In this document: positions 11,437 through 56,969 of the stretch, piece after piece
Numbering within the stretch: position 1 is the stretch's first letter
Layout of the letters: the number at the start of each line of letters is the position of its first letter
Sequence record: MK327929.1
Length of the DNA: 64,000 bases
Direction: 5' to 3' (one strand)
Origin: Escherichia phage D5505
Notes under the pieces: model-generated
What the model was told of the DNA's origin: nothing
Seen by the model: the letters and a program-made list of their open reading frames with translations, nothing else
The model's database searches: none
Translations under genes and position numbers: made by a program

Positions 11437-11466
11437 TTATGATTATGATTATGATTATGATTATGG
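11437..11466 (-). repeat. hexanucleotide tandem repeat (TAATCA)n at hoc stop
   Basis: Plus strand TTATGA x4 + TTATGG; on minus strand gives five consecutive in-frame TAA codons. Confidence 0.9.
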
Positions 11467-12591
11467 ATAGGTATAGATGATACCAGTTTCTAAAGCAGTT
11501 TTATGAATGATGTATCCATTACGCGATTCTTGAACATCAACTTCTGGATAGTCTTTCATCATCTTCTGAAGAGTGTAACGATGTAGGTAATATTTACTAT
11601 CTGGGTCGTCAGTTTTCCAATCTTTACCTTCTTCGGTCATTTTTTGGATTTCATCCATAACCCACCAACCGCACCAGATATAAGCTGAAGTACGATGTGG
11701 AAGAGGATGAACATAAGGTAGTTCACCTTCTGGTTCTGGAGCAACTTTATCAGTTACCTGAACTTGACCTTCTGCTGTAATAGTTTTGCTATCGTAATCA
11801 GTTGCAGTAACGACAGCAGTAACTTCAATAGTTTGACTTCCAACAGATGAGGTATCGACAGTATATACGTTAGTTGACCCTTCTACAGGAGAAGAATCTT
11901 TCTTCCATGAGTAAGTAATTTGTGCTTCTTCTGGAGCACCCGTAACATTAGCCGTAAATGTAGCCGAAGCATCTTGCTGAACATTAATAGAAGGAGGAGT
12001 CAATGTAACCTGTGGATTCATTGTCTTCTTATTAACTGTCAGTGATACTTCATTCGAAGTAACTTCCTTTGTATCATAATCTGTCGCGGTTACTTGAGCT
12101 ACGCACTTAATTGTTTTAACTCCGATTGCGTCAGGAGTGTAATTGAATGTAGTGCTAGTTGCTTCGCCCACAGGAGAACCGTCAACGTACCATTGATACG
12201 TAGCGTTTGCACCTGATGGCTGTGAAGCTAAGGCAGCGGTAAATTCAATTGGAGTTCCAATCACTCCAGCATCAGGGCTACCAGGAGTTACTGCCAAAGT
12301 AGTTGTTTGTGTCTTATTTTGAACTGTGATAGTTGTACTAATTTCAGCTGTTTCAGGTTCAGATTCTGCAACTTGATTGGTTGCAACTACTTTAATAGTC
12401 TTTTGACCGGCAGGTCCTTTTAGTACATAACTAAAAGTTGCTGACGTTTCTTCCTGTGGAGCGTCGTCTACAGTCCAAGCATATGTAATAGGTCCATCTC
12501 CAGTTTGACCACTGGGTGTAGCAGTAAACTGCTGAGTCTGATCTATAACTCCAGTAGGTGTTTTAGGAATTATATCAACTGTAAAAGCCAT
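11461..12591 (-). CDS. hoc: head outer capsid protein Hoc (Ig-like domain decoration protein)
   Basis: 376-aa ORF = T4 Hoc length; repeated ~90-aa Ig-like segments; synteny. Confidence 0.85.
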   Translation of the reverse strand: MAFTVDIIPKTPTGVIDQTQQFTATPSGQTGDGPITYAWTVDDAPQEETSATFSYVLKGPAGQKTIKVVATNQVAESEPETAEISTTITVQNKTQTTTLAVTPGSPDAGVIGTPIEFTAALASQPSGANATYQWYVDGSPVGEATSTTFNYTPDAIGVKTIKCVAQVTATDYDTKEVTSNEVSLTVNKKTMNPQVTLTPPSINVQQDASATFTANVTGAPEEAQITYSWKKDSSPVEGSTNVYTVDTSSVGSQTIEVTAVVTATDYDSKTITAEGQVQVTDKVAPEPEGELPYVHPLPHRTSAYIWCGWWVMDEIQKMTEEGKDWKTDDPDSKYYLHRYTLQKMMKDYPEVDVQESRNGYIIHKTALETGIIYTYP

Positions 12592-23695: not shown

Positions 23696-23749
23696 TCCTC
23701 ATGTTATGTCAGTAAGACTACTATAACACAACACGAGGGACTTGTAAAC
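23696..23749 (-). promoter_or_regulatory. early promoter + RBS cassette, copy 1 (GTTTAC -35, TATAGT -10, GAGGA SD)
   Basis: 54 bp identical to 39620-39673; -35 hexamer abuts stop of upstream alt-like gene. Confidence 0.7.
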
Positions 23750-25806
23750 TACATCTTGAACTTTTTAGACATTCCGTTGATGTTAACCAAAGAAGCTAAG
23801 ATTTGAGAAACTTCGTTTTCCTCTTCTTTTGATTCTTCTACAAGGAATTGATTAAATCCAGCCATTGGACGAACTTCACCAGTTTCCATCAAATGATCGC
23901 CATCATATACTGATTCTTCTAATTGCTCAGAAGGAGGAACGATTGTACCTTCGATTAGATACTTGTTATAAGCAGTTTCTTTCATAAAGTAAGTACTTAC
24001 TTTATTAATCTTCAGTAAAATTCCACGCGGTAGAATAACTTCAGCTTCTGATGGAAATCCTGATAAATGACCCGGAACGATAACTTTGATTCGCTCAGCT
24101 CCTTTAATTACCATACCCACGCTAGTTTCAGCATCTTCATTAGCATATGTAGAATGACTACCCATATGCATCAAATCTTCTGCATCAACGGAACCTTCTC
24201 CTTCACCAGAAAATACTGCACCGGAATCATCTAGAGCCATATAGTTTTTACCATGCTCGCCGAAGATATTTGGTTTAAGCGATGTAGATACGAAGTTCTT
24301 GAAATAGAACATTTTGTTTTCAATGTTATGACGCAAAGTTTTAAAGGTAACTTCTTGTCCGCGATAAAGCGTAGTTCCTGGAGGAAGAACTGAACCTTTA
24401 GCGAATGCAGAATCCAACGTCTCGATGTGCTTAATAGCTCGTTCCATATATTCTTCACGGGTAGAATCTGGTTTACCCAAAAGGAACGAGTTCATTTCAA
24501 CATATGAATCTGCACAATAATCTTCAATTACATCAGATTCGGCCTGAGTCAGTCCTTTTGGAGTTACTTCAGTGCTTGCGTATTCATATGCCTGGGCAGC
24601 AGATTCATTAATCAATTTATAAATGCCATTCATGACAAATTGAATAATAGCTGTCTTTTCATCTGGCGTAGCTTTAGAACCTTTAACTAAATCATTAATA
24701 ATTTTCTTAATAACATCAAAGCTATTAGAAATATTAATGTCAGCAAGATCGCTTAAAATTTTATCAGTTTTATAATCAAAGAATTCTTTATTCTTTAAAT
24801 ATTCTTGAGAACCTTGATATGTTATATCGCTCTGCAACTTGATAGATGGATCACGTAAACGTGCATGGGCCAATGCAATATGATTTCGGAAGCTTTCTAG
24901 TTCATAATCGCTAGATTTAAAACGAGAAGCACTTCTCATACCACCGATAGCTCCTTTGCTGAAGTTTGAACCAATCTGGATAACGCCAGAGTTCATTGGT
25001 CCTTCTGCTTTATATACCGGAACTTTAGATTCAAACTCTTGATATTTCTTGGCAGCGAAGCTATCACCCTGTAGCGAAGCATCGACAGTAGAATATTGAG
25101 CTTGTGCTGCTAATCGACGACTAATTTTAGTTTTTTGAATAACAGCTTGATCCGTGCGCTTATCATTTTCTAAAGCAATAGAAGCAGCAACAGCGACAGC
25201 TTTAGGAACAGCATTACCTGTTTTAACATCTACATAAACATCACCGACCTTCGATTCAACTTTTGTGAATAACTCAGTTGAAATAGGAGGTACACCTGGA
25301 ATGTCTTCTAAATTGGCATTTTTACGGTAAACCATAATATATGCATACTTTTTATCATAGTCCCAGATTTCCTTTAAAAGAACATATCGACCTGCTCCTT
25401 TAGTACGTACTAAACGGTCAGCAATAACTTGCATTTGACGAGCAGCGCCATTTGTTTTACTCTTTAGTACGCGGAATAAGCATGCATCAATTTTATACTG
25501 TTTCATTGTTTGAAGAGCAGTATCAAAAACAGCGTTAATGACGCCAATTGGATTTCCACCCAAGTTTCTAAGTTTAACCAGTGATAATTTCTCGTTGACA
25601 CCTATCATTACGATATGCATCATTTTATCGCCCGGCTTAACGTTTTTATTTGTATCACCTCCAGAGGTGTATGTACAAAATCTAAATCCAGGAAGCACGC
25701 TTTCTTCGCCGGCTTGAATAGCAAAAATTTGAGGTATTTTATGCTTAGGATTTAAGTTAACAACCGGCGCCGAAGCGCCGTCAAATAATTCTGTAATAAG
25801 TTCCAT
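23749..25806 (-). CDS. Alt-like ADP-ribosyltransferase, paralogue 2
   Basis: 685-aa ORF; N-terminal half near-collinear with the adjacent 683-aa ORF; C-terminal R (LYRGQ), STS (FVSTSL), ExE (SEAEV) ART-type motifs. Confidence 0.75.
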   Translation of the reverse strand: MELITELFDGASAPVVNLNPKHKIPQIFAIQAGEESVLPGFRFCTYTSGGDTNKNVKPGDKMMHIVMIGVNEKLSLVKLRNLGGNPIGVINAVFDTALQTMKQYKIDACLFRVLKSKTNGAARQMQVIADRLVRTKGAGRYVLLKEIWDYDKKYAYIMVYRKNANLEDIPGVPPISTELFTKVESKVGDVYVDVKTGNAVPKAVAVAASIALENDKRTDQAVIQKTKISRRLAAQAQYSTVDASLQGDSFAAKKYQEFESKVPVYKAEGPMNSGVIQIGSNFSKGAIGGMRSASRFKSSDYELESFRNHIALAHARLRDPSIKLQSDITYQGSQEYLKNKEFFDYKTDKILSDLADINISNSFDVIKKIINDLVKGSKATPDEKTAIIQFVMNGIYKLINESAAQAYEYASTEVTPKGLTQAESDVIEDYCADSYVEMNSFLLGKPDSTREEYMERAIKHIETLDSAFAKGSVLPPGTTLYRGQEVTFKTLRHNIENKMFYFKNFVSTSLKPNIFGEHGKNYMALDDSGAVFSGEGEGSVDAEDLMHMGSHSTYANEDAETSVGMVIKGAERIKVIVPGHLSGFPSEAEVILPRGILLKINKVSTYFMKETAYNKYLIEGTIVPPSEQLEESVYDGDHLMETGEVRPMAGFNQFLVEESKEEENEVSQILASLVNINGMSKKFKM

Positions 25807-25809
25807 GAT

Positions 25810-27861
25810 TTATCCTTGAACGAACTTGTAAGGCATGTTTGCAATATCTATGCAAGACGCAATAATTCCAAGAGATGATTCTACTTTCTGTTTAACATTT
25901 GATGAAACAAATGATGCAAAGTCAACTCTATCTTCTATATCACCTGTCATTGTAACCAATTCACCAGTTTCCATTAAATGGTCTCCGTCATAGATTACCG
26001 ATTCGGTGAGTTCTTCTGTGGTCATAACTTCAGCTTGAATAAGCTTGTTGTTAGTTTTAACTGTTCCATCATTGTAAGATGCATCGGTTATTTTATTAAC
26101 TTTGACCATTAATCCACGTGGCAAAATGACTTCCATTTCATTTGAAGGTGCTAAACTTCCACCGGGTAAAACAACATTGACCTTATCAGCCCCAGTAATA
26201 ACCCATCCAATTCCAACTAAATTATCGCTAGAATTTACTAGTCCTTCATCAGTTTTATCAATAGAAACACTTAGACGCTTTTCGTCTGGTAAAACACCTA
26301 CAGATGAATCAGTCATCCAAGTACCAAAAATATTTGGATATAATGATGTTGACACAAAGTTTCTAAAATAAAAAACTCGATTTTTTACCATTGCTTCATA
26401 TATTGAAGGTAACATTCGTTGTGAACGATACAAAGTAATACCTTTTGGTAATCGTTCACCATTTTTAAAGGCTGAATCTAAATTATCAATAGCTTTTTCT
26501 ATGTCAGATGCTGTCAAAATACTTGTACGCTCATCTGGATTATATAATCCCAAAAGAGCATTATTTATATCTACATATCCTGAACCTACGTATTCACGAA
26601 TTCCGCGTTTTTGCGCCGGTGTGTATTTAGATGAATCTTTATTTTCGACTATAGGATGTAATGACCATCCAGCTGTAAGAGCATATCCACGTAATTCTCT
26701 TCGAATAATCTTTGTTTTTATTGCATTCCAAGAATTTTGTACTAACTCATTTGCAGCATCTTGATTTAAATGCGAATGTTTGTTAATATTTCTTTCAAAC
26801 CAAGCACCTTTATATTTTTCTAAAGTATCATCGACGATAGAAGCAATAGTTTCTAAAGTTTTTATTGAAGTAATAGATTCTTTTCGTAATCTTTCTAAAG
26901 CTTTATTTTTTATTTCTGTATTAACATCAGATTCTTTATCTTCAGGAATTATAGAAGCTTCTCTGAATGCCATTCCAGCTGTAACACTATTAAGAGCATT
27001 CTCTAATGCAAATCCTGAAGTAGAAATAACAGTTAATTCGTTAGCATCGGAAATTAAAGGCGCATCAGCGGGTTTATTTAATTCTGCTGCTGAAGCCTCA
27101 AATTTTTGAAACATCGGTGTTTCAAATCTAGAAGATTCCAATGATTGACTTTGCGCAATTGCTCTACGGGAAATTTTAACTTTAACGATTACAGCTTGGT
27201 CAGAACGTTTATCATTTTCTTGTGCAATAGATGCTGCAATTGCCTCATTTTTAGTTACTTGAGCTCCAGTATCTTTATTGATATAAACATCACCGACCTT
27301 CGATTCAACTTTAGTAAAGAGCTCGGTACTAATTTCTGGAACTCCTGGAATGTCTTCTAGTGATACATTTTTGCGATGTATAAGAATATATGCATACTTT
27401 TTATCATAATCCCAGAGTTCCTTAAGAAGGACGTATCTGCCACCTGAACGACTACGGATAAGTCTATCAGCAATAACTTGAATTTGTCGAGCTTGACCAG
27501 CGGTTTTAGACTTAAGAATACGGAGCATACAAGCATCAATTTTATATTGACGCATTGTTTGCATTGCAACAGTAAAAACTGAATTGATATAATTAATTGG
27601 GCTTGGCCCAAGACCTTTCAATTTAGCAATTGAACCTTTAGCGGTTAATGTAAAAGGAACAATATGCATCATTTTATCGCCCATTTTTAAATCGCGATTA
27701 GTATCACCTCCAGATGTATAGGTACATAAACGAAAGCCTGGCTGTTCAATTGCATCATCAACGTGAACTGAAAAAATTTGCGGTATTTTCTTCTTTGGAT
27801 TTAAGTTTGTAATCGGAAGAGTAGTATCTTCGTCAAATAATTCTGTAATGAGTTCCATCAT
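25810..27861 (-). CDS. alt: Alt ADP-ribosyltransferase (virion-packaged, modifies host RNA polymerase)
   Basis: 683-aa ORF (T4 Alt ~682 aa) adjacent to gene 30; R (LYRSQ), STS, ExE (NEMEV) motifs. Confidence 0.8.
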   Translation of the reverse strand: MMELITELFDEDTTLPITNLNPKKKIPQIFSVHVDDAIEQPGFRLCTYTSGGDTNRDLKMGDKMMHIVPFTLTAKGSIAKLKGLGPSPINYINSVFTVAMQTMRQYKIDACMLRILKSKTAGQARQIQVIADRLIRSRSGGRYVLLKELWDYDKKYAYILIHRKNVSLEDIPGVPEISTELFTKVESKVGDVYINKDTGAQVTKNEAIAASIAQENDKRSDQAVIVKVKISRRAIAQSQSLESSRFETPMFQKFEASAAELNKPADAPLISDANELTVISTSGFALENALNSVTAGMAFREASIIPEDKESDVNTEIKNKALERLRKESITSIKTLETIASIVDDTLEKYKGAWFERNINKHSHLNQDAANELVQNSWNAIKTKIIRRELRGYALTAGWSLHPIVENKDSSKYTPAQKRGIREYVGSGYVDINNALLGLYNPDERTSILTASDIEKAIDNLDSAFKNGERLPKGITLYRSQRMLPSIYEAMVKNRVFYFRNFVSTSLYPNIFGTWMTDSSVGVLPDEKRLSVSIDKTDEGLVNSSDNLVGIGWVITGADKVNVVLPGGSLAPSNEMEVILPRGLMVKVNKITDASYNDGTVKTNNKLIQAEVMTTEELTESVIYDGDHLMETGELVTMTGDIEDRVDFASFVSSNVKQKVESSLGIIASCIDIANMPYKFVQG

Positions 27862-31318: not shown

Positions 31319-31512
31319 ACTAATTCCTTTAATCCGTAGATAGGAGATAATTCATCACCCATACGAAGGTCTTCATTTCCATCTACCCAGGAAACAATAT
31401 AAGCCTCTTTTATTTGAATACCACTCCATTTAAATGGAGGTAGAACCTTAGAAATTAATCCAGGTATACCAACTCCCTTTAATTCAACAGTTTGACCTAA
31501 AAAGAATTTCAT
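31315..31512 (-). CDS. hypothetical small protein
   Basis: 65-aa ORF, start overlaps upstream stop. Confidence 0.5.
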   Translation of the reverse strand: MKFFLGQTVELKGVGIPGLISKVLPPFKWSGIQIKEAYIVSWVDGNEDLRMGDELSPIYGLKELV

Positions 31513-31798
31513 TAAAACCTCATCTGAAAACCGTGCGATTTAACATTACCGCCATTAATATCAGAACTATTAATTTCACGTGCAATTGAGGGATCAATGT
31601 CAATTTCGCGATTGAGTTTAGTGATAGCTAAAGTATCGCGCCCATTTACAGTACGGAACTCTAAAGGGCAGACTACATTAACGTAGTTTTTAATCGATTC
31701 ACTGGTAGGTTGCAAATGTGCAGGAAGGTCTTTAGGCGCCTTTGAGAAAACCACTTCACAAAATTTTTACGGGTATCAAAATAAGTAGTCATAAACAT
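31512..31798 (-). CDS. hypothetical protein with split reading frame (ATG+SD in one frame, 80-codon body in -1 frame)
   Basis: ATG 31798 preceded by GAGGAA; body ORF 31512-31754 has only a GTG without SD; frames overlap at A_AAT_TTT (31760-31766). Confidence 0.4.
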
Positions 31799-32891: not shown

Positions 32892-33289
32892 TATAAATTC
32901 TCTTTTAAATGAAAATGCAGGACTTATTGGCATTGCCTGCGCAAGCCCTCAAGGGGAACATAGGTTTTTGGATATTTAACGACCAGGATAACCATAAACC
33001 CGTCATCATACCTTATAGCTCTTATCTGTTGCACACCGTTAGCTTAAAGGTTCCGGGTTCGATTTCTCGAGGATAAGATATATACTGATGGATATATAGG
33101 CCTTGAGGCGTACTCCCGATTGGCCATCACCTCGGGGTAGCATGCACTTGCCGCTATAAGAATAACATTCAAGAGGTACACCGTAAAACTGCCGGGGTCT
33201 TAAAACTATAATGATTCACAAATCATTAATCAGACAGTTCGACGGCTCCTCGTTTTAACTTCACACTAAGGCAGTGACTCTCCAATAAA

Positions 33290-33538: not shown

Positions 33539-33677
33539 TTAAAAATTCTCGTTAGAGATTAAAACTCGGTAGTCACGTTCTTCTGAATTTCATCTTCTTT
33601 CGACAGATCTCTCAGTTGTAGACTACCACATAGAATTGTTCGGTTAACTTATTATTCCGACACCCAATTCATATTAT

Positions 33678-33685
33678 TATTTATA
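33678..33685 (-). promoter_or_regulatory. late promoter TATAAATA (minus strand) upstream of rIII
   Basis: Plus-strand TATTTATA = minus-strand TATAAATA just downstream of gene 31 stop. Confidence 0.45.
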
Positions 33686-34021
33686 TCACTTATAAAGACA
33701 CGGAATAGCTTTATAGTGACAGGTAACGAATTTTTGTTTAATTTCTTTTGGCTGCTTAAGACCCAGAGCTACAAAAGGGTGTGGAACGTTTCGAATTTGA
33801 CCAACTGGAAGAGAAGTCAAATCACCAACTTCACAGAAACCTTCAGGAACATCAGGACCGACAGAGTGAACTACACACAGTTCAGGAACTTCACCTTGAA
33901 CACGTTTACCGATAATAAGTCCTGATTCTGTAACTTCTTCATCACCGGCTTGTGCAGGTTCAGAAACTAAAATAACATATTCACCGACAGCACGAATTGG
34001 TAGCTGTTGTACTTCAGACAT
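33686..34021 (-). CDS. 31: co-chaperonin gp31 (GroES analogue)
   Basis: 111-aa ORF; sequence and length match T4 gp31. Confidence 0.9.
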
Positions 34022-39619: not shown

Positions 39620-39673
39620 TCCTCATGTTATGTCAGTAAGACTACTATAACACAACACGAGGGACTTGTAAAC
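39620..39673 (-). promoter_or_regulatory. early promoter + RBS cassette, copy 2
   Basis: 54 bp identical to 23696-23749; -35 GTTTAC sits 3 nt after rnlA stop. Confidence 0.7.
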
Positions 39674-48249: not shown

Positions 48250-48260
48250 ATTATCTCCTA

Positions 48261-48593
48261 TTAAAAAGGATCAGGAACATATCCGCTAGCTTTAATCATT
48301 TTAATTAACGTTAACATTCCTTTGTTAACTGCTCGTGAGATTTCATCAAAAACTTCATCACTAAAAAGTTCTAACACGCCCTTCTGAACTTTTAATTTAC
48401 AGCCAACAATTTCGTCATCTCCTATAGTAAATTCGCTTCCGCCAATTCCGCCGAAAAACTTAATTACGCCAGTTAACTGTCTTCCACGAGAATATGGGTC
48501 GTGTGATAAAGTAATATGAGTCACCCCAGGTACAGTTTTAAATTGGCAGCGGATGTTTACTTGAGCAATTCCAGTTACATGAATGTCAGACAT
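48261..48593 (-). CDS. hypothetical protein (frd.x)
   Basis: 110-aa ORF. Confidence 0.5.
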   Translation of the reverse strand: MSDIHVTGIAQVNIRCQFKTVPGVTHITLSHDPYSRGRQLTGVIKFFGGIGGSEFTIGDDEIVGCKLKVQKGVLELFSDEVFDEISRAVNKGMLTLIKMIKASGYVPDPF

Positions 48594-48985: not shown

Positions 48986-49350
48986 TACTTTTTGAAAGTT
49001 TTTCGCAAAAGTTCAATGATTTCATCTACATTGTTTTCGTCAACAATGCAGTGAATTTTTGTTACGCCAGAAACTTTGTCTTTGACTTCATCTTCTTCAG
49101 AAGTCGGTTCTTTATACTCACGAAAACAATGAAATTCGTCTTCACAAACGTTAAAGTAAAAATGCTTTCCATTTGCGCATTCAATGTGTTTTATTACTCT
49201 AAATCCATCAACAAAGAAAGCTTCTTTAACTTCAAACCATCCGCCATTTTCTTGAATAATTTTAACTATCGATGAATTAGAACGTGGGCGATAATTAATA
49301 AATGTATCAATAAGTCTTGGAACAAGCTCATACTTTTTGCCAATATACAT
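48985..49350 (-). CDS. hypothetical protein
   Basis: 121-aa ORF. Confidence 0.5.
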   Translation of the reverse strand: MYIGKKYELVPRLIDTFINYRPRSNSSIVKIIQENGGWFEVKEAFFVDGFRVIKHIECANGKHFYFNVCEDEFHCFREYKEPTSEEDEVKDKVSGVTKIHCIVDENNVDEIIELLRKTFKK

Positions 49351-50679: not shown

Positions 50680-50760
50680 TTTTATTTCCTTTTTAATTTA
50701 ATTAACAGTTGGTGCTATGACGATGTATGACCTCATAGCTGGTCAGTGAGATAATTATAA
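50680..50760 (-). promoter_or_regulatory. gene 32 translational operator (autoregulatory leader: pseudoknot region + UUAAAUUAAAAAGGAAAUAAAAAUG)
   Basis: Leader AATTAAATTAAAAAGGAAATAAAAATG directly upstream of gene 32 ATG matches the known gp32-binding A/U-rich site. Confidence 0.6.
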
Positions 50761-50778
50761 TCTATTTATAATAAGCAA

Positions 50779-52022: not shown

Positions 52023-52940
52023 TCAAAATTCATTAATGCTATTAGTTAATTTAGAAAGACCCGCTTTTACAAAATATGAATAAATTTTGCCACGCGGTGG
52101 TAATTTATATGAATTATAGTAATTCACAATGTTTGAAGCAATATTATCAGGAATATAATCAAAATCAATTAGAACTAAATTTTCTTTATAACGATTATAT
52201 TCAGATTCTGTGAGAAGCACCTTAGCTTGCTCACGGTCATTAGCAATAGCTTCAACGATTGAAGTTTTCATTGAAGGAGTTCGTTCACCTTCAACTCTGG
52301 TAAACCAAAAGTCAGAACGTACTTTAACTGAAGCAACATTATCCTTTTTGTCACCCTTAAGAATTTTAGTCATACAATCAATTTCAGCAGAACCGCTTTT
52401 AATTTTAACCCATTTCTTATGCATCGGTGACCATTGCTTAACATTTGGATATTTGTGAAGCTGTGTAAAGTCACCATCCGATGAAATGATTAAAATCTTA
52501 TGTCCTTCTAAAGAGAACTTTTTAACAAGAACAGCAATGTGGTCATCTGCTTCATACTTATCAATATCCATAACAATGTATGGCATATAAGCTTTCAATT
52601 CATCTATAACTTTATGGCTGGATTCAAAATAACCTTCCCAGTCCCAAGTAGATTCTTCTCGTGCTTTTCCACGGTTTTTCTTATAATAATAAGCGAAATC
52701 ACGACGCCAGTATCCAGATTTCGCGTTATCAATACACAGTACAATTTTAGTGTATCCAAGCGTTTTTGCTTTTTTGACATTAAACTTAATTGAGTTCAAT
52801 ATCAAATGACGAACCATTGATAAATTAATTTTTTCTTTATCTGGGAAGTTTACCAGAGCAGTTGAAAGAGCAATTTGACTAAAGTCAATAAAGCAAATTC
52901 CTTCTTTGTAATCTTCATCCAGCATCATTTCTAAATCCAT
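52023..52940 (-). CDS. rnh: RNase H (5'-3' exonuclease / flap endonuclease)
   Basis: ATG at 52940 gives 305 aa (MDLEMMLDEDYKEGIC...) = T4 RNase H. Confidence 0.9.
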   Translation of the reverse strand: MDLEMMLDEDYKEGICFIDFSQIALSTALVNFPDKEKINLSMVRHLILNSIKFNVKKAKTLGYTKIVLCIDNAKSGYWRRDFAYYYKKNRGKAREESTWDWEGYFESSHKVIDELKAYMPYIVMDIDKYEADDHIAVLVKKFSLEGHKILIISSDGDFTQLHKYPNVKQWSPMHKKWVKIKSGSAEIDCMTKILKGDKKDNVASVKVRSDFWFTRVEGERTPSMKTSIVEAIANDREQAKVLLTESEYNRYKENLVLIDFDYIPDNIASNIVNYYNSYKLPPRGKIYSYFVKAGLSKLTNSINEF

Positions 52941-53002
52941 ATGAACCTCGTTCAATTAGTGAGATTTCTATTATATACTATCTAAATCTTAAAGTAAACA
53001 GG

Positions 53003-53010
53003 TATAAATA
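53003..53010 (+). promoter_or_regulatory. late promoter TATAAATA (gene 34)
   Basis: Exact TATAAATA ~35 nt upstream of gene 34 ATG. Confidence 0.55.
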
Positions 53011-53044: not shown

Positions 53045-56000
53045 ATGGCCGAGATTAAAAGAAAGTTCAGAGCAGAAGATGGTCTGGACGCAGGTGGCGA
53101 TAAAATAATCAACGTAGCTTTAGCTGACCGTACCGTAGGAACTGACGGTGTTAACGTTGATTACTTAATTCAAGAAAACACAGTTCAGCAATATGATCCA
53201 ACTCGTGGATATTTAAAAGATTTTGTAATCATTTATAATAATCGTTTTTGGGCAGCAACGGATAATATTCCAAAACCTGCTGGAAATTTTAATAGAATTC
53301 GTTGGAAAGCATTACGTACTGATGCCGTATATACAACCGTATCATCTGGACCATATCAATTAAAATCCGGAGAAGCAATTTCAGTAGATACATCAGTTGG
53401 CAATGACATTGAGTTTACTTTACCACCTTCTCCGCTTGATGGAGAAACCGTAATAATTCAAGATATCGGTGGAAAACCTGGCATAAATCAGGTTAAAATA
53501 AATTCTTCAAATCAGAGTATTGTCAATTTTAGAGGTGAACAGGTACGTTCAGTTTTAATGACTCATCCAAAGTCACAGATGATATTCATTTTTAATAATC
53601 GTTTGTGGCAAATGTATGTTGCTGATTATAGCAGAGAAGCTGCGATTGTTACTCCATCGACTGCGTATCAAGCACAATCTAATGATTTTATCGTACGTAG
53701 ATTTACTTCTGCTGCACCAATTAATGTTAAACTTCCGAGATTTGCTAATCATGGCGATATTATTAATTTCGTTGATTTAGATAAACTGAATCCACTTTAT
53801 CATACAATTGTTACTACATACGATGAAACGACTTCAGTACAAGAAGTTGGAACTCATTCCATTGAAGGCCGTACATCGATTGACGGTTTCTTGATGTTTG
53901 ACGATAATGAGAAATTGTGGAGATTGTTTGACGGGGATAGTAAAGCACGTTTACGCATTATAACAACTAATTCAAATATTCGTCCAAATGAAGAAGTCAT
54001 GGTATTTGGCGCGAATAATGGAACAACCCAAACAATTGAACTTCAGCTTCCGACTGATATTTCTGTTGGTGATACTGTTAAAATTTCCATGAATTACATG
54101 AGAAAAGGACAAACAGTTAAAATCAAAGCTGCTGGTGAAGATAAAATTGCTTCTTCAGTTCAATTGCTGCAATTCCCAAAACGTTCAGAATATCCGCCTG
54201 AAGCTGAATGGGTAACAGTTCAAGAATTAGTTTTTAACGGTGAAACTATTTATGTTCCAGTTTTACAACTTGCTTATATAGAAGATTCTGATGGAAAATA
54301 CTGGGTTGTACAGCAAAACGTTCCAACTGTAGAAAGAGTAGACTCTTTAAATGCTTCTACTAGAGCAAGATTAGGCGTAATTGCTTTAGCTACGCAAGCT
54401 CAAGCAAATGCTGATTTAGAAAATTCTCCACAAAAAGAATTGGCAATTACTCCAGAAACGTTAGCTAATCGTACTGCTACAGAAACTCGCAGAGGTATCG
54501 CAAGAATAGCAACTACTGCTCAAGTAAACTGCTACAGAAACTCGCAGAGGTATCGCAAGAATAGCAACTACTGCTCAAGTAAATCAGAACACTACATTCT
54601 CTTTTGCTGATGACCTTATCATCACTCCTAAAAAGCTGAATGAAAGAACTGCTACAGAAACTCGCAGAGGTGTTGCTGAAATTGCTACGCAGCAGGAAAC
54701 TAATACAGGTATCGATGATACTACAATCATCACTCCTAAAAAGCTTCAAGCTCGTCAAGGTTCTGAAACATTATCGGGTATTGTAACTTTTGTATCTACC
54801 GCAGGAGCTACTCCAGCCTCTAGTCGTGAATTAAATGGTACAAATGTTTATAATAAAAACACTAATAATTTAGTTGTTTCACCTAAAGCTTTGGATCAGT
54901 ATAAAGCTACTCCAACGCAACAAGGCGCAGTAATTTTAGCAGTTGAAAGTGAAGTAATTGCTGGACAAAGCCAAGAAGGATGGGCAAATGCGGTTGTAAC
55001 GCCAGAAACGTTACATAAAAAGACATCAACTGATGCAAGAATTGGTTTAATTGAAATTGCTACACAAAGTGAAGTTAATACAGGAACTGATTATACTCGT
55101 GCAGTCACTCCTAAAACTTTAAATGACCGTAGAGCAACTGAAAGTTTAAGTGGTATAGCTGAAATTGCTACACAGGTTGAATTCGACGCAGGCGTCGACG
55201 ATACTCGTATCTCTACACCATTAAAAATTAAAACCAGATTTAATAATACTGATCGTACTTCTGTTGTTGCTCTATCTGGATTAGTTGAATCAGGAACTCT
55301 CTGGGACCATTATACCCTTAATATTCTTGAAGCAAATGAGACACAGCGTGGTACACTTCGTGTAGCTACACAAGTTGAAGCTGCTGCAGGAACATTAGAT
55401 AATGTTTTAATAACTCCTAAAAAGCTTTTAGGTACTAAATCTACCGAATCGCAAGAAGGTGTTATTAAAGTTGCAACTCAGTCTGAAACTGTGACTGGAA
55501 CGTCAGCAAATACTGCTGTATCTCCAAAAAATTTAAAATGGATTGTGCAGAGTGAACCAACTTGGGCAGCAACTACTCTGATAAGAGGGTTTGTTAAAAC
55601 TTCTTCTGGTTCATTAACGTTTGTTGGTAATGATACGGTAGGTTCAACACAGCCATTAGAATCATATGAGAAAAATGGTTATGCAGTATCACCATATGAA
55701 TTAAATCGCGTATTAGCAAATTATTTGCCATTAAAAGCAAAAGCTGTAGATAGTAATTTATTAGATGGTCTAGATTCGCTCCAGTTCATTCGTAGGGACA
55801 TTGCACAAACAGTTAATGGTTCACTAACCTTAACCCAACAAACGAATCTGGGTGCCCCTCTTGTATCATCTAGTACTGCTACATTCGGTGGATCAGTTTC
55901 AGCAAATAGTACATTAACTATTTCTAATACTGGAACGGCAACTCGTCTGATTTTTGAGAAAGGACCTCAAACTGGAACAAACCCGGCTCAAACGATGACA

Positions 56001-56969
56001 GTCAGAGTGTGGGGAAATCAATTTAGCGGGGAATCAGACACAACACGTTCTACCGTATTTGAAGTTAGTGATGAAACGTCTAGTCATTTTTATTCTCAGC
56101 GTAATAAAGCTGGAAATATAACATTTAATATCAACGGTACAGTAACACCGATAAATGTTAATGCTTCAGGAACATTGAATGCAAATGGTGTAGCAACATT
56201 TGGTAATTCAGTCACTGCAACTGGTGAAATTATTTCTCGAAGCGCAAATGCTTTCCGTGCTATTAGCGGAAATTATGGTTTCATTGTTCGCAATGACGGG
56301 TCAGTAACGAATTTTATGCTTACTGCATCGGGTGATCAGACTGGCGGATTTAATGGATTGCGTCCTTTAGCTATTAATAATGCATCTGGCCAAGTAACGA
56401 TTGGTGAAAGCTTAATCATTGCCAAAGGTGCTACTATAAGTTCGGGTGGTTTGACTGTTAACTCGAGAATTCGTTCTCAGGGCACTAAAACATCTGATTT
56501 ATACACCCGCGCTCCAACATCTGATACTGTAGGATTCTGGTCAATTGATATTAACGATTCAGCCACTTATAACCAGTTCCCGGGTTATTTTAAAATGGTT
56601 GAAAAAACTAATGAAGTGACTGGGCTTCCATACTTAGAACGTGGCGAAGAAGTTAAATCTCCTGGTACATTGACTCAGTTTGGTAACACACTTGATTCGC
56701 TTTACCAAGATTGGATTACTTATCCAACGACCCCAGAAGCACGTACCACTCGCTGGACGCGTACATGGCAGAAAACTAAAAATTCTTGGTCAAGTTTTGT
56801 TCAGGTATTTGATGGAGGTAACCCTCCTCAACCTTCGGATATAGGAGCGATCCCATCTGATAATGGAATAATAGGTAATCTTACTATTCGTGATTTCTTA
56901 CGAATTGGTAATGTTCGCATTATTCCTGACCCAGTGAATAAAACTGTTAAATTTGAATGGGTTGAATAA
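53045..56969 (+). pseudogene. 34: long tail fibre proximal subunit gp34, reading frame interrupted by a 55-bp tandem duplication
   Basis: N-terminal ORF 53045-54610 and frame-shifted ORF 54528/54891-56969; removing one 55-bp copy yields 1289 codons, the T4 gp34 size. Confidence 0.85.
54473..54582 (+). repeat. perfect 55-bp direct tandem duplication (2 copies) inside gene 34
   Basis: 54473-54527 = 54528-54582 (ACTGCTACAGAAACTCGCAGAGGTATCGCAAGAATAGCAACTACTGCTCAAGTAA). Confidence 0.95.

Follow-up and report, generated by a model that had tools for sequence, protein, structure and literature searches.

How a T4-type phage could live with the gene of its proximal long tail fibre written in two pieces is the question raised by positions 53045-56969 of the sequence of Escherichia phage D5505, of which we analysed a stretch of 64,000 nucleotides, hereafter called the window. 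The window is that of a Tequatrovirus (T4-like phage): it covers, in this order, the gene of the large terminase, those of head, tail and baseplate, genes 34-38 and the holin gene, and it aligns colinearly with Yersinia phage PYps14T, the identity being about 98% (98-99% to PYps14T, U115 and others by megablast). The gene order 33(rnh)-34-35-36-37-38 is kept, and the neighbours of gene 34 agree with the PYps14T annotation. Inside gene 34 itself a 55-nt segment stands twice in succession, and as 55 is not divisible by 3 the gene looks frameshifted. We put the probability at roughly 87% that this repeat is an assembler overlap of 55 nt, left untrimmed when a circular de Bruijn contig was closed. 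The duplication is thus most probably not a real biological feature, and the phage itself most likely has an intact gene 34.

Judged by similarity of DNA and protein, the interrupted gene is a T4-type gene 34. Its DNA is 99.2% identical to the genes for "long tail fiber proximal subunit" of Tequatrovirus phages, and the reading frame that begins with copy 2 aligns over its whole length with residues 477-1289 of T4 gp34 (PDB 9x3r_M, 1289 aa); both comparisons agree with the initial annotation, which had named the gene as gene 34. An NCBIfam scan of the two gene-34 fragments returned no family. The apparent N-terminal ORF (53045-54610, + strand, 521 aa) reads ...TATETRRGIARIATTAQVN, continues for 26 out-of-frame codons and ends with the TGA at 54608-54610. 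Authentic gp34 accounts for its residues 1-495, and its final 26 residues come from out-of-frame read-through of copy 2. Identity to PYps14T gp34 amounts to 99.2% over residues 1-499 of this ORF and to 99.5% over the 813 codons located 3' of the shift, which contain neither a stop nor any further lesion. These 813 codons form the C-terminal gene-34 frame (54528-56969, + strand), which corresponds to gp34 residues 477-1289 and is undamaged; on its upstream side it is closed by a TAA at 54525-54527 (+ strand), made up of bases at the end of copy 1 when these are read out of frame. Removal of one copy results in a single ORF of 3870 nt, i.e., 1289 codons and a stop, colinear with T4 gp34. The frames and coordinates had been described correctly from the start (the TGA, the TAA and a frame open as far as 56969), and our recomputation reproduced the restored length of 3870 nt and 1289 codons, noted earlier as the size of T4 gp34 and matched by the 1289 residues of 9x3r_M. 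We also judge as right the earlier statement that the sequence as written yields no full-length gp34 by ordinary translation.

The repeat consists of copy 1 at 54473-54527 and copy 2 at 54528-54582 (both + strand), which are 55 nt long, 100% identical and joined head to tail without a spacer. That the two 55-bp copies are identical and in tandem, as first noted, was borne out both by direct comparison and by Tandem Repeats Finder, which reports at this place a period of 55, 2.0 copies, 100% matches and a score of 222. The duplicated unit is ACTGCTACAGAAACTCGCAGAGGTATCGCAAGAATAGCAACTACTGCTCAAGTAA. It codes for residues 477-494 plus one base, since the copy-2 frame aligns to gp34 residues 477-1289; copy 1 accordingly ends on the first base of codon 495, and from the first base of copy 2 onwards the correct gene-34 frame is open again. 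With a slash marking the boundary, the junction between the copies reads …CTCAAGTAA/ACTGCTACAG…, or, with a longer left side, …GCTCAAGTAA/ACTGCTACAG…; the pair is flanked by …TTAGCTAATCGT on the left and ATCAGAACAC… on the right, and in the single-copy order CGT is followed by one 55-nt unit and then by ATCAGAAC. Identity between the copies extends past the 55 nt by 0 nt on the left and by 1 nt on the right, a chance "A". A perfect 55-nt tandem cannot originate by chance, and this one is the sole sizeable tandem repeat within the 64-kb window.

The junction is, as far as sequence searches can tell, unique to this sequence among the collections searched. Phage records matching positions 54300-54760 number 505, and all 60 of those listed span 406 nt, not 461 nt; a span of 406 nt in two pieces equals 461 minus 55, and therefore each of the 60 listed records carries one copy. 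Against 50,697 phage records, a 60-nt query centred on the junction gave no match at E<=1e-12, and the exact 42-nt junction was not found in IMG/VR, in JGI metagenome contigs or in 100,044 species-representative genomes. The relatives in IMG/VR that contain the region have one copy at 5 of 5 loci. In an alignment with Sf21, U115, T6, EC.W14-2 and PYps14T, every relative displays a clean gap of 55 columns, and Sf21 and U115 are the same as the window at all other aligned bases of the 246-nt stretch. Megablast of three parts of the window against the phage collection returned no identical record, 98-99% being the best identity; exact-protein look-ups with the 521-aa fragment, gp37 and gp38, searches of E. 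coli genomes and plasmids, and an IMG/VR search with gp38 (best hit 98%) likewise revealed no second assembly of this genome.

An origin of such a repeat in the assembly process can be outlined as follows. The genomes of T4-type phages are circularly permuted, and therefore short reads derived from them assemble into a closed loop. A de Bruijn assembler of the SPAdes type, for which the final k on short reads is 55, would output this loop in linear form, with one and the same vertex as the first k and the last k bases of the contig. If the contig were then rotated to a conventional start without removal of one vertex copy, a perfect 55-nt tandem would appear in the interior of the sequence: copy 1 would represent the 3' end of the original circular contig and copy 2 its 5' end, both being the one k=55 vertex, and the closure point would have fallen within gene 34. 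Since the loop must be cut at a remaining vertex, this explanation predicts both the length of the repeat and its boundary. That the copies stand side by side inside the sequence implies that no end was trimmed when the contig was rotated or circularised. Both the use of SPAdes or another assembler with k=55 and the rotation without trimming are steps that we infer. What is seen at the locus is consistent with them: the copies are identical and adjacent, their length equals a k of 55, the genome is of the circularly permuted type, the repeated 55-mer is a plausible vertex, and independently assembled close relatives lack the junction.

The position of the repeat points in the same direction as its length. 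The 55-nt unit and a natural 24-nt repeat, R1 (ACTGCTACAGAAACTCGCAGAGGT), share their first base, so that R1 makes up the first 24 nt of the unit; R1 recurs as R2 at 54648-54671 (+ strand). In the single-copy gene R2 lies 120 nt (40 codons) downstream of R1; it is kept in relatives, and R1 and R2 belong to the series of repeated "TATETRRG" motifs of gp34. Left-maximal exact repeats of at least 24 nt start at only 8 positions in the de-duplicated window of 63,945 nt, and an arbitrary breakpoint would therefore coincide with such a start with a probability of about 1e-4 (about 1 in 8000). We built a k=55 graph from the single-copy sequence, to which we added a path leading from the left context of R2 into the repeat and on into the right context of R1, and found that the only in-branch vertex in this graph is exactly the duplicated 55-mer. 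The loop would thus have been cut at this vertex through the branching-in of a minor chimeric or recombinant read path leading from R2 to R1. The vertex argument needs such a path because a 24-nt repeat alone makes no branch at k=55. The duplicated 55-mer is a plausible k=55 vertex, and we infer the presence of the minor R2-to-R1 path in the reads; its source may have been a PCR or recombination chimera, or a minor variant with a 120-nt in-frame duplication, either of which would have the sequence …AATGAAAGA/ACTGCT…AGGT/ATCGCAAG….

Overlaps of this kind are documented. Roush et al. describe how SPAdes 3.12 left a 55-bp terminal overlap on the contig of another T4-like coliphage, one end of which needed trimming before the contig was reopened (PMC8483715). 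The same artefact was seen at k=127 in other phages (PMC5923482, PMC8104045), and Shovill/SPAdes assemblies of phages contain internal repeats of about 79 bp, most of which were confirmed by Sanger sequencing to be artefacts (PMC10438801). The repeat in gene 34 resembles these known "artificial overlaps" of 55, 77, 79 or 127 bp in being exact and equal in length to the final k of an assembler. It differs from the usual k-mer overlap in that the known copies are found at contig ends and are trimmed, whereas here the copies are adjacent and internal. The initial annotation had proposed, among other options, an assembly artefact in a repeat-rich gene; this option is the one strongly favoured by the length of the repeat, by its position at a vertex and by its uniqueness, and it can now be made specific as an untrimmed k=55 overlap.

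A second option put forward at that stage was that the duplication is genuine, very recent and creates a frameshift null allele which would easily revert by recombination between the copies. We consider this unlikely. A fresh mutation would also be expected to be perfect, unique to one sequence and free of other damage in the gene, and T4-type phages are generally known to generate tandem duplications; since the 813 downstream codons are undamaged, the event must be either extremely recent or not biological. A genuine duplication does not, however, account for a length of 55 nt that equals an assembler k value exactly, and the location of the left boundary at a de Bruijn vertex (p ~1e-4) is not predicted by a slippage model. 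The junction microhomology is only 1 nt, although this is weak evidence because some real duplications occur without microhomology. The natural repeats could not have produced the duplication in one step: we rejected unequal exchange between R1 and R2 as a single-event origin since it gives a 120-nt in-frame change and not one of 55 nt, and a route through R1/R2 exchange would take two events, the first duplicating 120 nt and the second deleting 65 nt. Finally, gp34 is essential for the infectivity of T4-type phages, and gene-34 mutants form fibreless, non-infectious particles. A null allele is therefore not expected as the consensus sequence of a propagated phage and, unless leaky, would be impossible as that of a plaque-purified one.

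The repeat is like the duplications of the T4 rII or lysozyme type, which are perfect, short, not a multiple of 3 in length, gene-inactivating and revertible by loss of a copy. Those mutants, however, were selected or deliberately maintained, whereas here an essential gene is affected, the microhomology is 1 nt, and both length and position are assembler-like. Motif-repeat variation in gp34 and Ig-domain variation in Hoc offer another likeness, namely a gene built of repeated motifs. Natural gp34 and hoc variants nevertheless differ by whole in-frame units, 120 nt long in gp34 and 288 nt long in hoc, and the 55-nt unit does neither. The claim that gene 34 is broken divides: it holds for the database sequence and probably does not hold for the phage itself.

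The duplication would acquire a function if gain and loss of a copy through recombination served as a reversible, high-frequency on/off switch of long-tail-fibre production, or if ribosomes dealt with it by a 55-nt hop or a +1 shift; we regard a duplication that is both real and functional as very unlikely. A hop or a +1 shift, if true, would be the second bypass-type recoding event in a T4-type phage. Recoding was the third option of the initial annotation, and it found no support among the signals looked for. It would require that full-length gp34 be made from a real duplication either by a 55-nt hop similar to that of T4 gene 60 or by a +1 frameshift within 54528-54607, and we hold this to be extremely improbable. 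The gene-60 bypass is well known from T4 itself, and the likeness consists in a non-coding gap of about 50 nt (50 nt hopped in gene 60) in a T4-type gene, with matching flanking codons. Each codon of copy 1 does have an identical landing codon 55 nt downstream, but the need for matched take-off and landing codons is trivially satisfied because the two copies are identical. Unlike in gene 60, no stop adjoins any take-off codon (the first stop, at 54608-54610, is 27 codons past copy 1), no take-off stem-loop and no conservation are seen, and the "gap" is copied coding sequence. In a prediction of RNA folding, 54460-54640 did not exceed shuffled sequence in stability (z = -0.37). A +1 shift, the change of frame that is needed, is conceivable insofar as the zero frame ends with ...CUC UUU UGC UGA, where tRNA-Phe could re-pair in +1 on U UUU. 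Measured against a +1 shift of the prfB type, however, the stop in UUU UGC UGA is one codon away, the site lacks conservation, and codon-by-codon inspection upstream of UUU U revealed no SD-like stimulator; moreover, the product would carry 25 nonsense residues inside the trimeric fibre shaft. No evolved recoding signal is possible, given that the insert is absent from all relatives inspected. With an unremarkable fold, no take-off stop and no stimulator, recoding was rejected.

It may also be asked whether gene 34 is genuinely split, so that the proximal half-fibre would be composed of two separately translated polypeptides. The two long frames jointly cover the whole protein with an overlap of 18 residues, as such an arrangement would require. 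The overlap, however, results from exact DNA duplication and not from evolved termini, no split gene is present among the 60 listed of the 505 matching phage records, and the downstream frame contains no ATG, GTG or TTG for 121 codons; the first possible start is a TTG at 54891, with no Shine-Dalgarno sequence upstream of it. The split-gene reading, whose probability we take to be close to nil, was rejected on account of the 121 codons without a start codon.

The stop-to-stop ORFs of the window were compared with those of PYps14T. For the 89 reference ORFs that are 100 aa or longer, gene 34 is the only real gene to be broken; the other ORFs flagged correspond to the window edges, one spurious antisense ORF and one small hypothetical gene. 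A general poor quality of the assembly was rejected as an explanation, the remainder of the window being clean.

Since gene 34 of the phage itself is almost certainly normal, the duplication most likely carries little biological meaning and is most probably a curation error to be corrected, not a biological finding. Probably the deposited sequence exceeds the real one by 55 nt, and an essential tail-fibre gene is probably mis-annotated in it as two fragments or as a pseudogene. Such mis-annotation could mislead pipelines that screen for host range, receptor-binding proteins or phage-therapy candidates. The case also provides a reusable diagnostic: a perfect internal tandem repeat which has the length of an assembler k and is missing in close relatives points to the untrimmed overlap of a circular contig, the common values of k being 55, 77, 99 and 127, as well as 79 and 103 for Shovill.

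Several other features of the window deserve mention in their own right. The hoc gene (11461-12591, - strand) codes for 376 aa, as in T4, vs 472 aa in PYps14T; the 288 nt by which it is shorter amount to one Ig-like repeat unit and represent natural in-frame variation, as opposed to the out-of-frame 55-nt repeat. A TTATGA hexamer is repeated 4.8 times at 11437-11465, in an array that is 18 nt longer than in PYps14T, overlaps the stop-codon end of hoc and extends into the adjoining intergenic region. A perfect dispersed direct repeat of 54 nt (TCCTCATGTTATGTCAGTAAGACTACTATAACACAACACGAGGGACTTGTAAAC), one base below k=55, occurs at 23696-23749 and 39620-39673, 15.9 kb apart. One copy has its counterpart, likewise 100% conserved, between alc and rnlA in PYps14T, and the other lies just 3' of gene 54; the element may be a transcript end or regulatory element, or a recombination site.

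Further differences from PYps14T concern small genes and mobile elements. At 31764 (- strand) a 1-nt deletion is located near the 5' end of a hypothetical gene of 95 aa (reference 33636-33923); the ORF of this small gene at 31512-31766 (- strand) retains an open frame of 84 codons with a separate 62-codon piece upstream, and the deletion may be a real frameshift, may be accommodated by an alternative start or may be a sequencing error. Three segments (33009-33165, 48254-48591 and 49159-49331) have no megablast counterpart in PYps14T; located among small early genes, they are either insertions of local extent or patches that have diverged. Between gene 32 (ssDNA-binding protein) and gene 59 (helicase loader), PYps14T has a homing-endonuclease gene that the window lacks at the corresponding place (50742-50778), the interval here being shorter by about 620 nt (reference 52376-53008). 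Colinearity with PYps14T indicates that at about 45.3-47.2 kb the thymidylate synthase gene is interrupted by an insert containing a homing endonuclease, which looks like a td-type group I intron. An Rfam scan at the gathering threshold returned no family anywhere in the 64-kb window. Lastly, 25610-25809 and 27659-27861 contain stretches that are 72-94% identical and belong to two adjacent paralogues of about 2 kb on the - strand, both of the Alt ADP-ribosyltransferase type.
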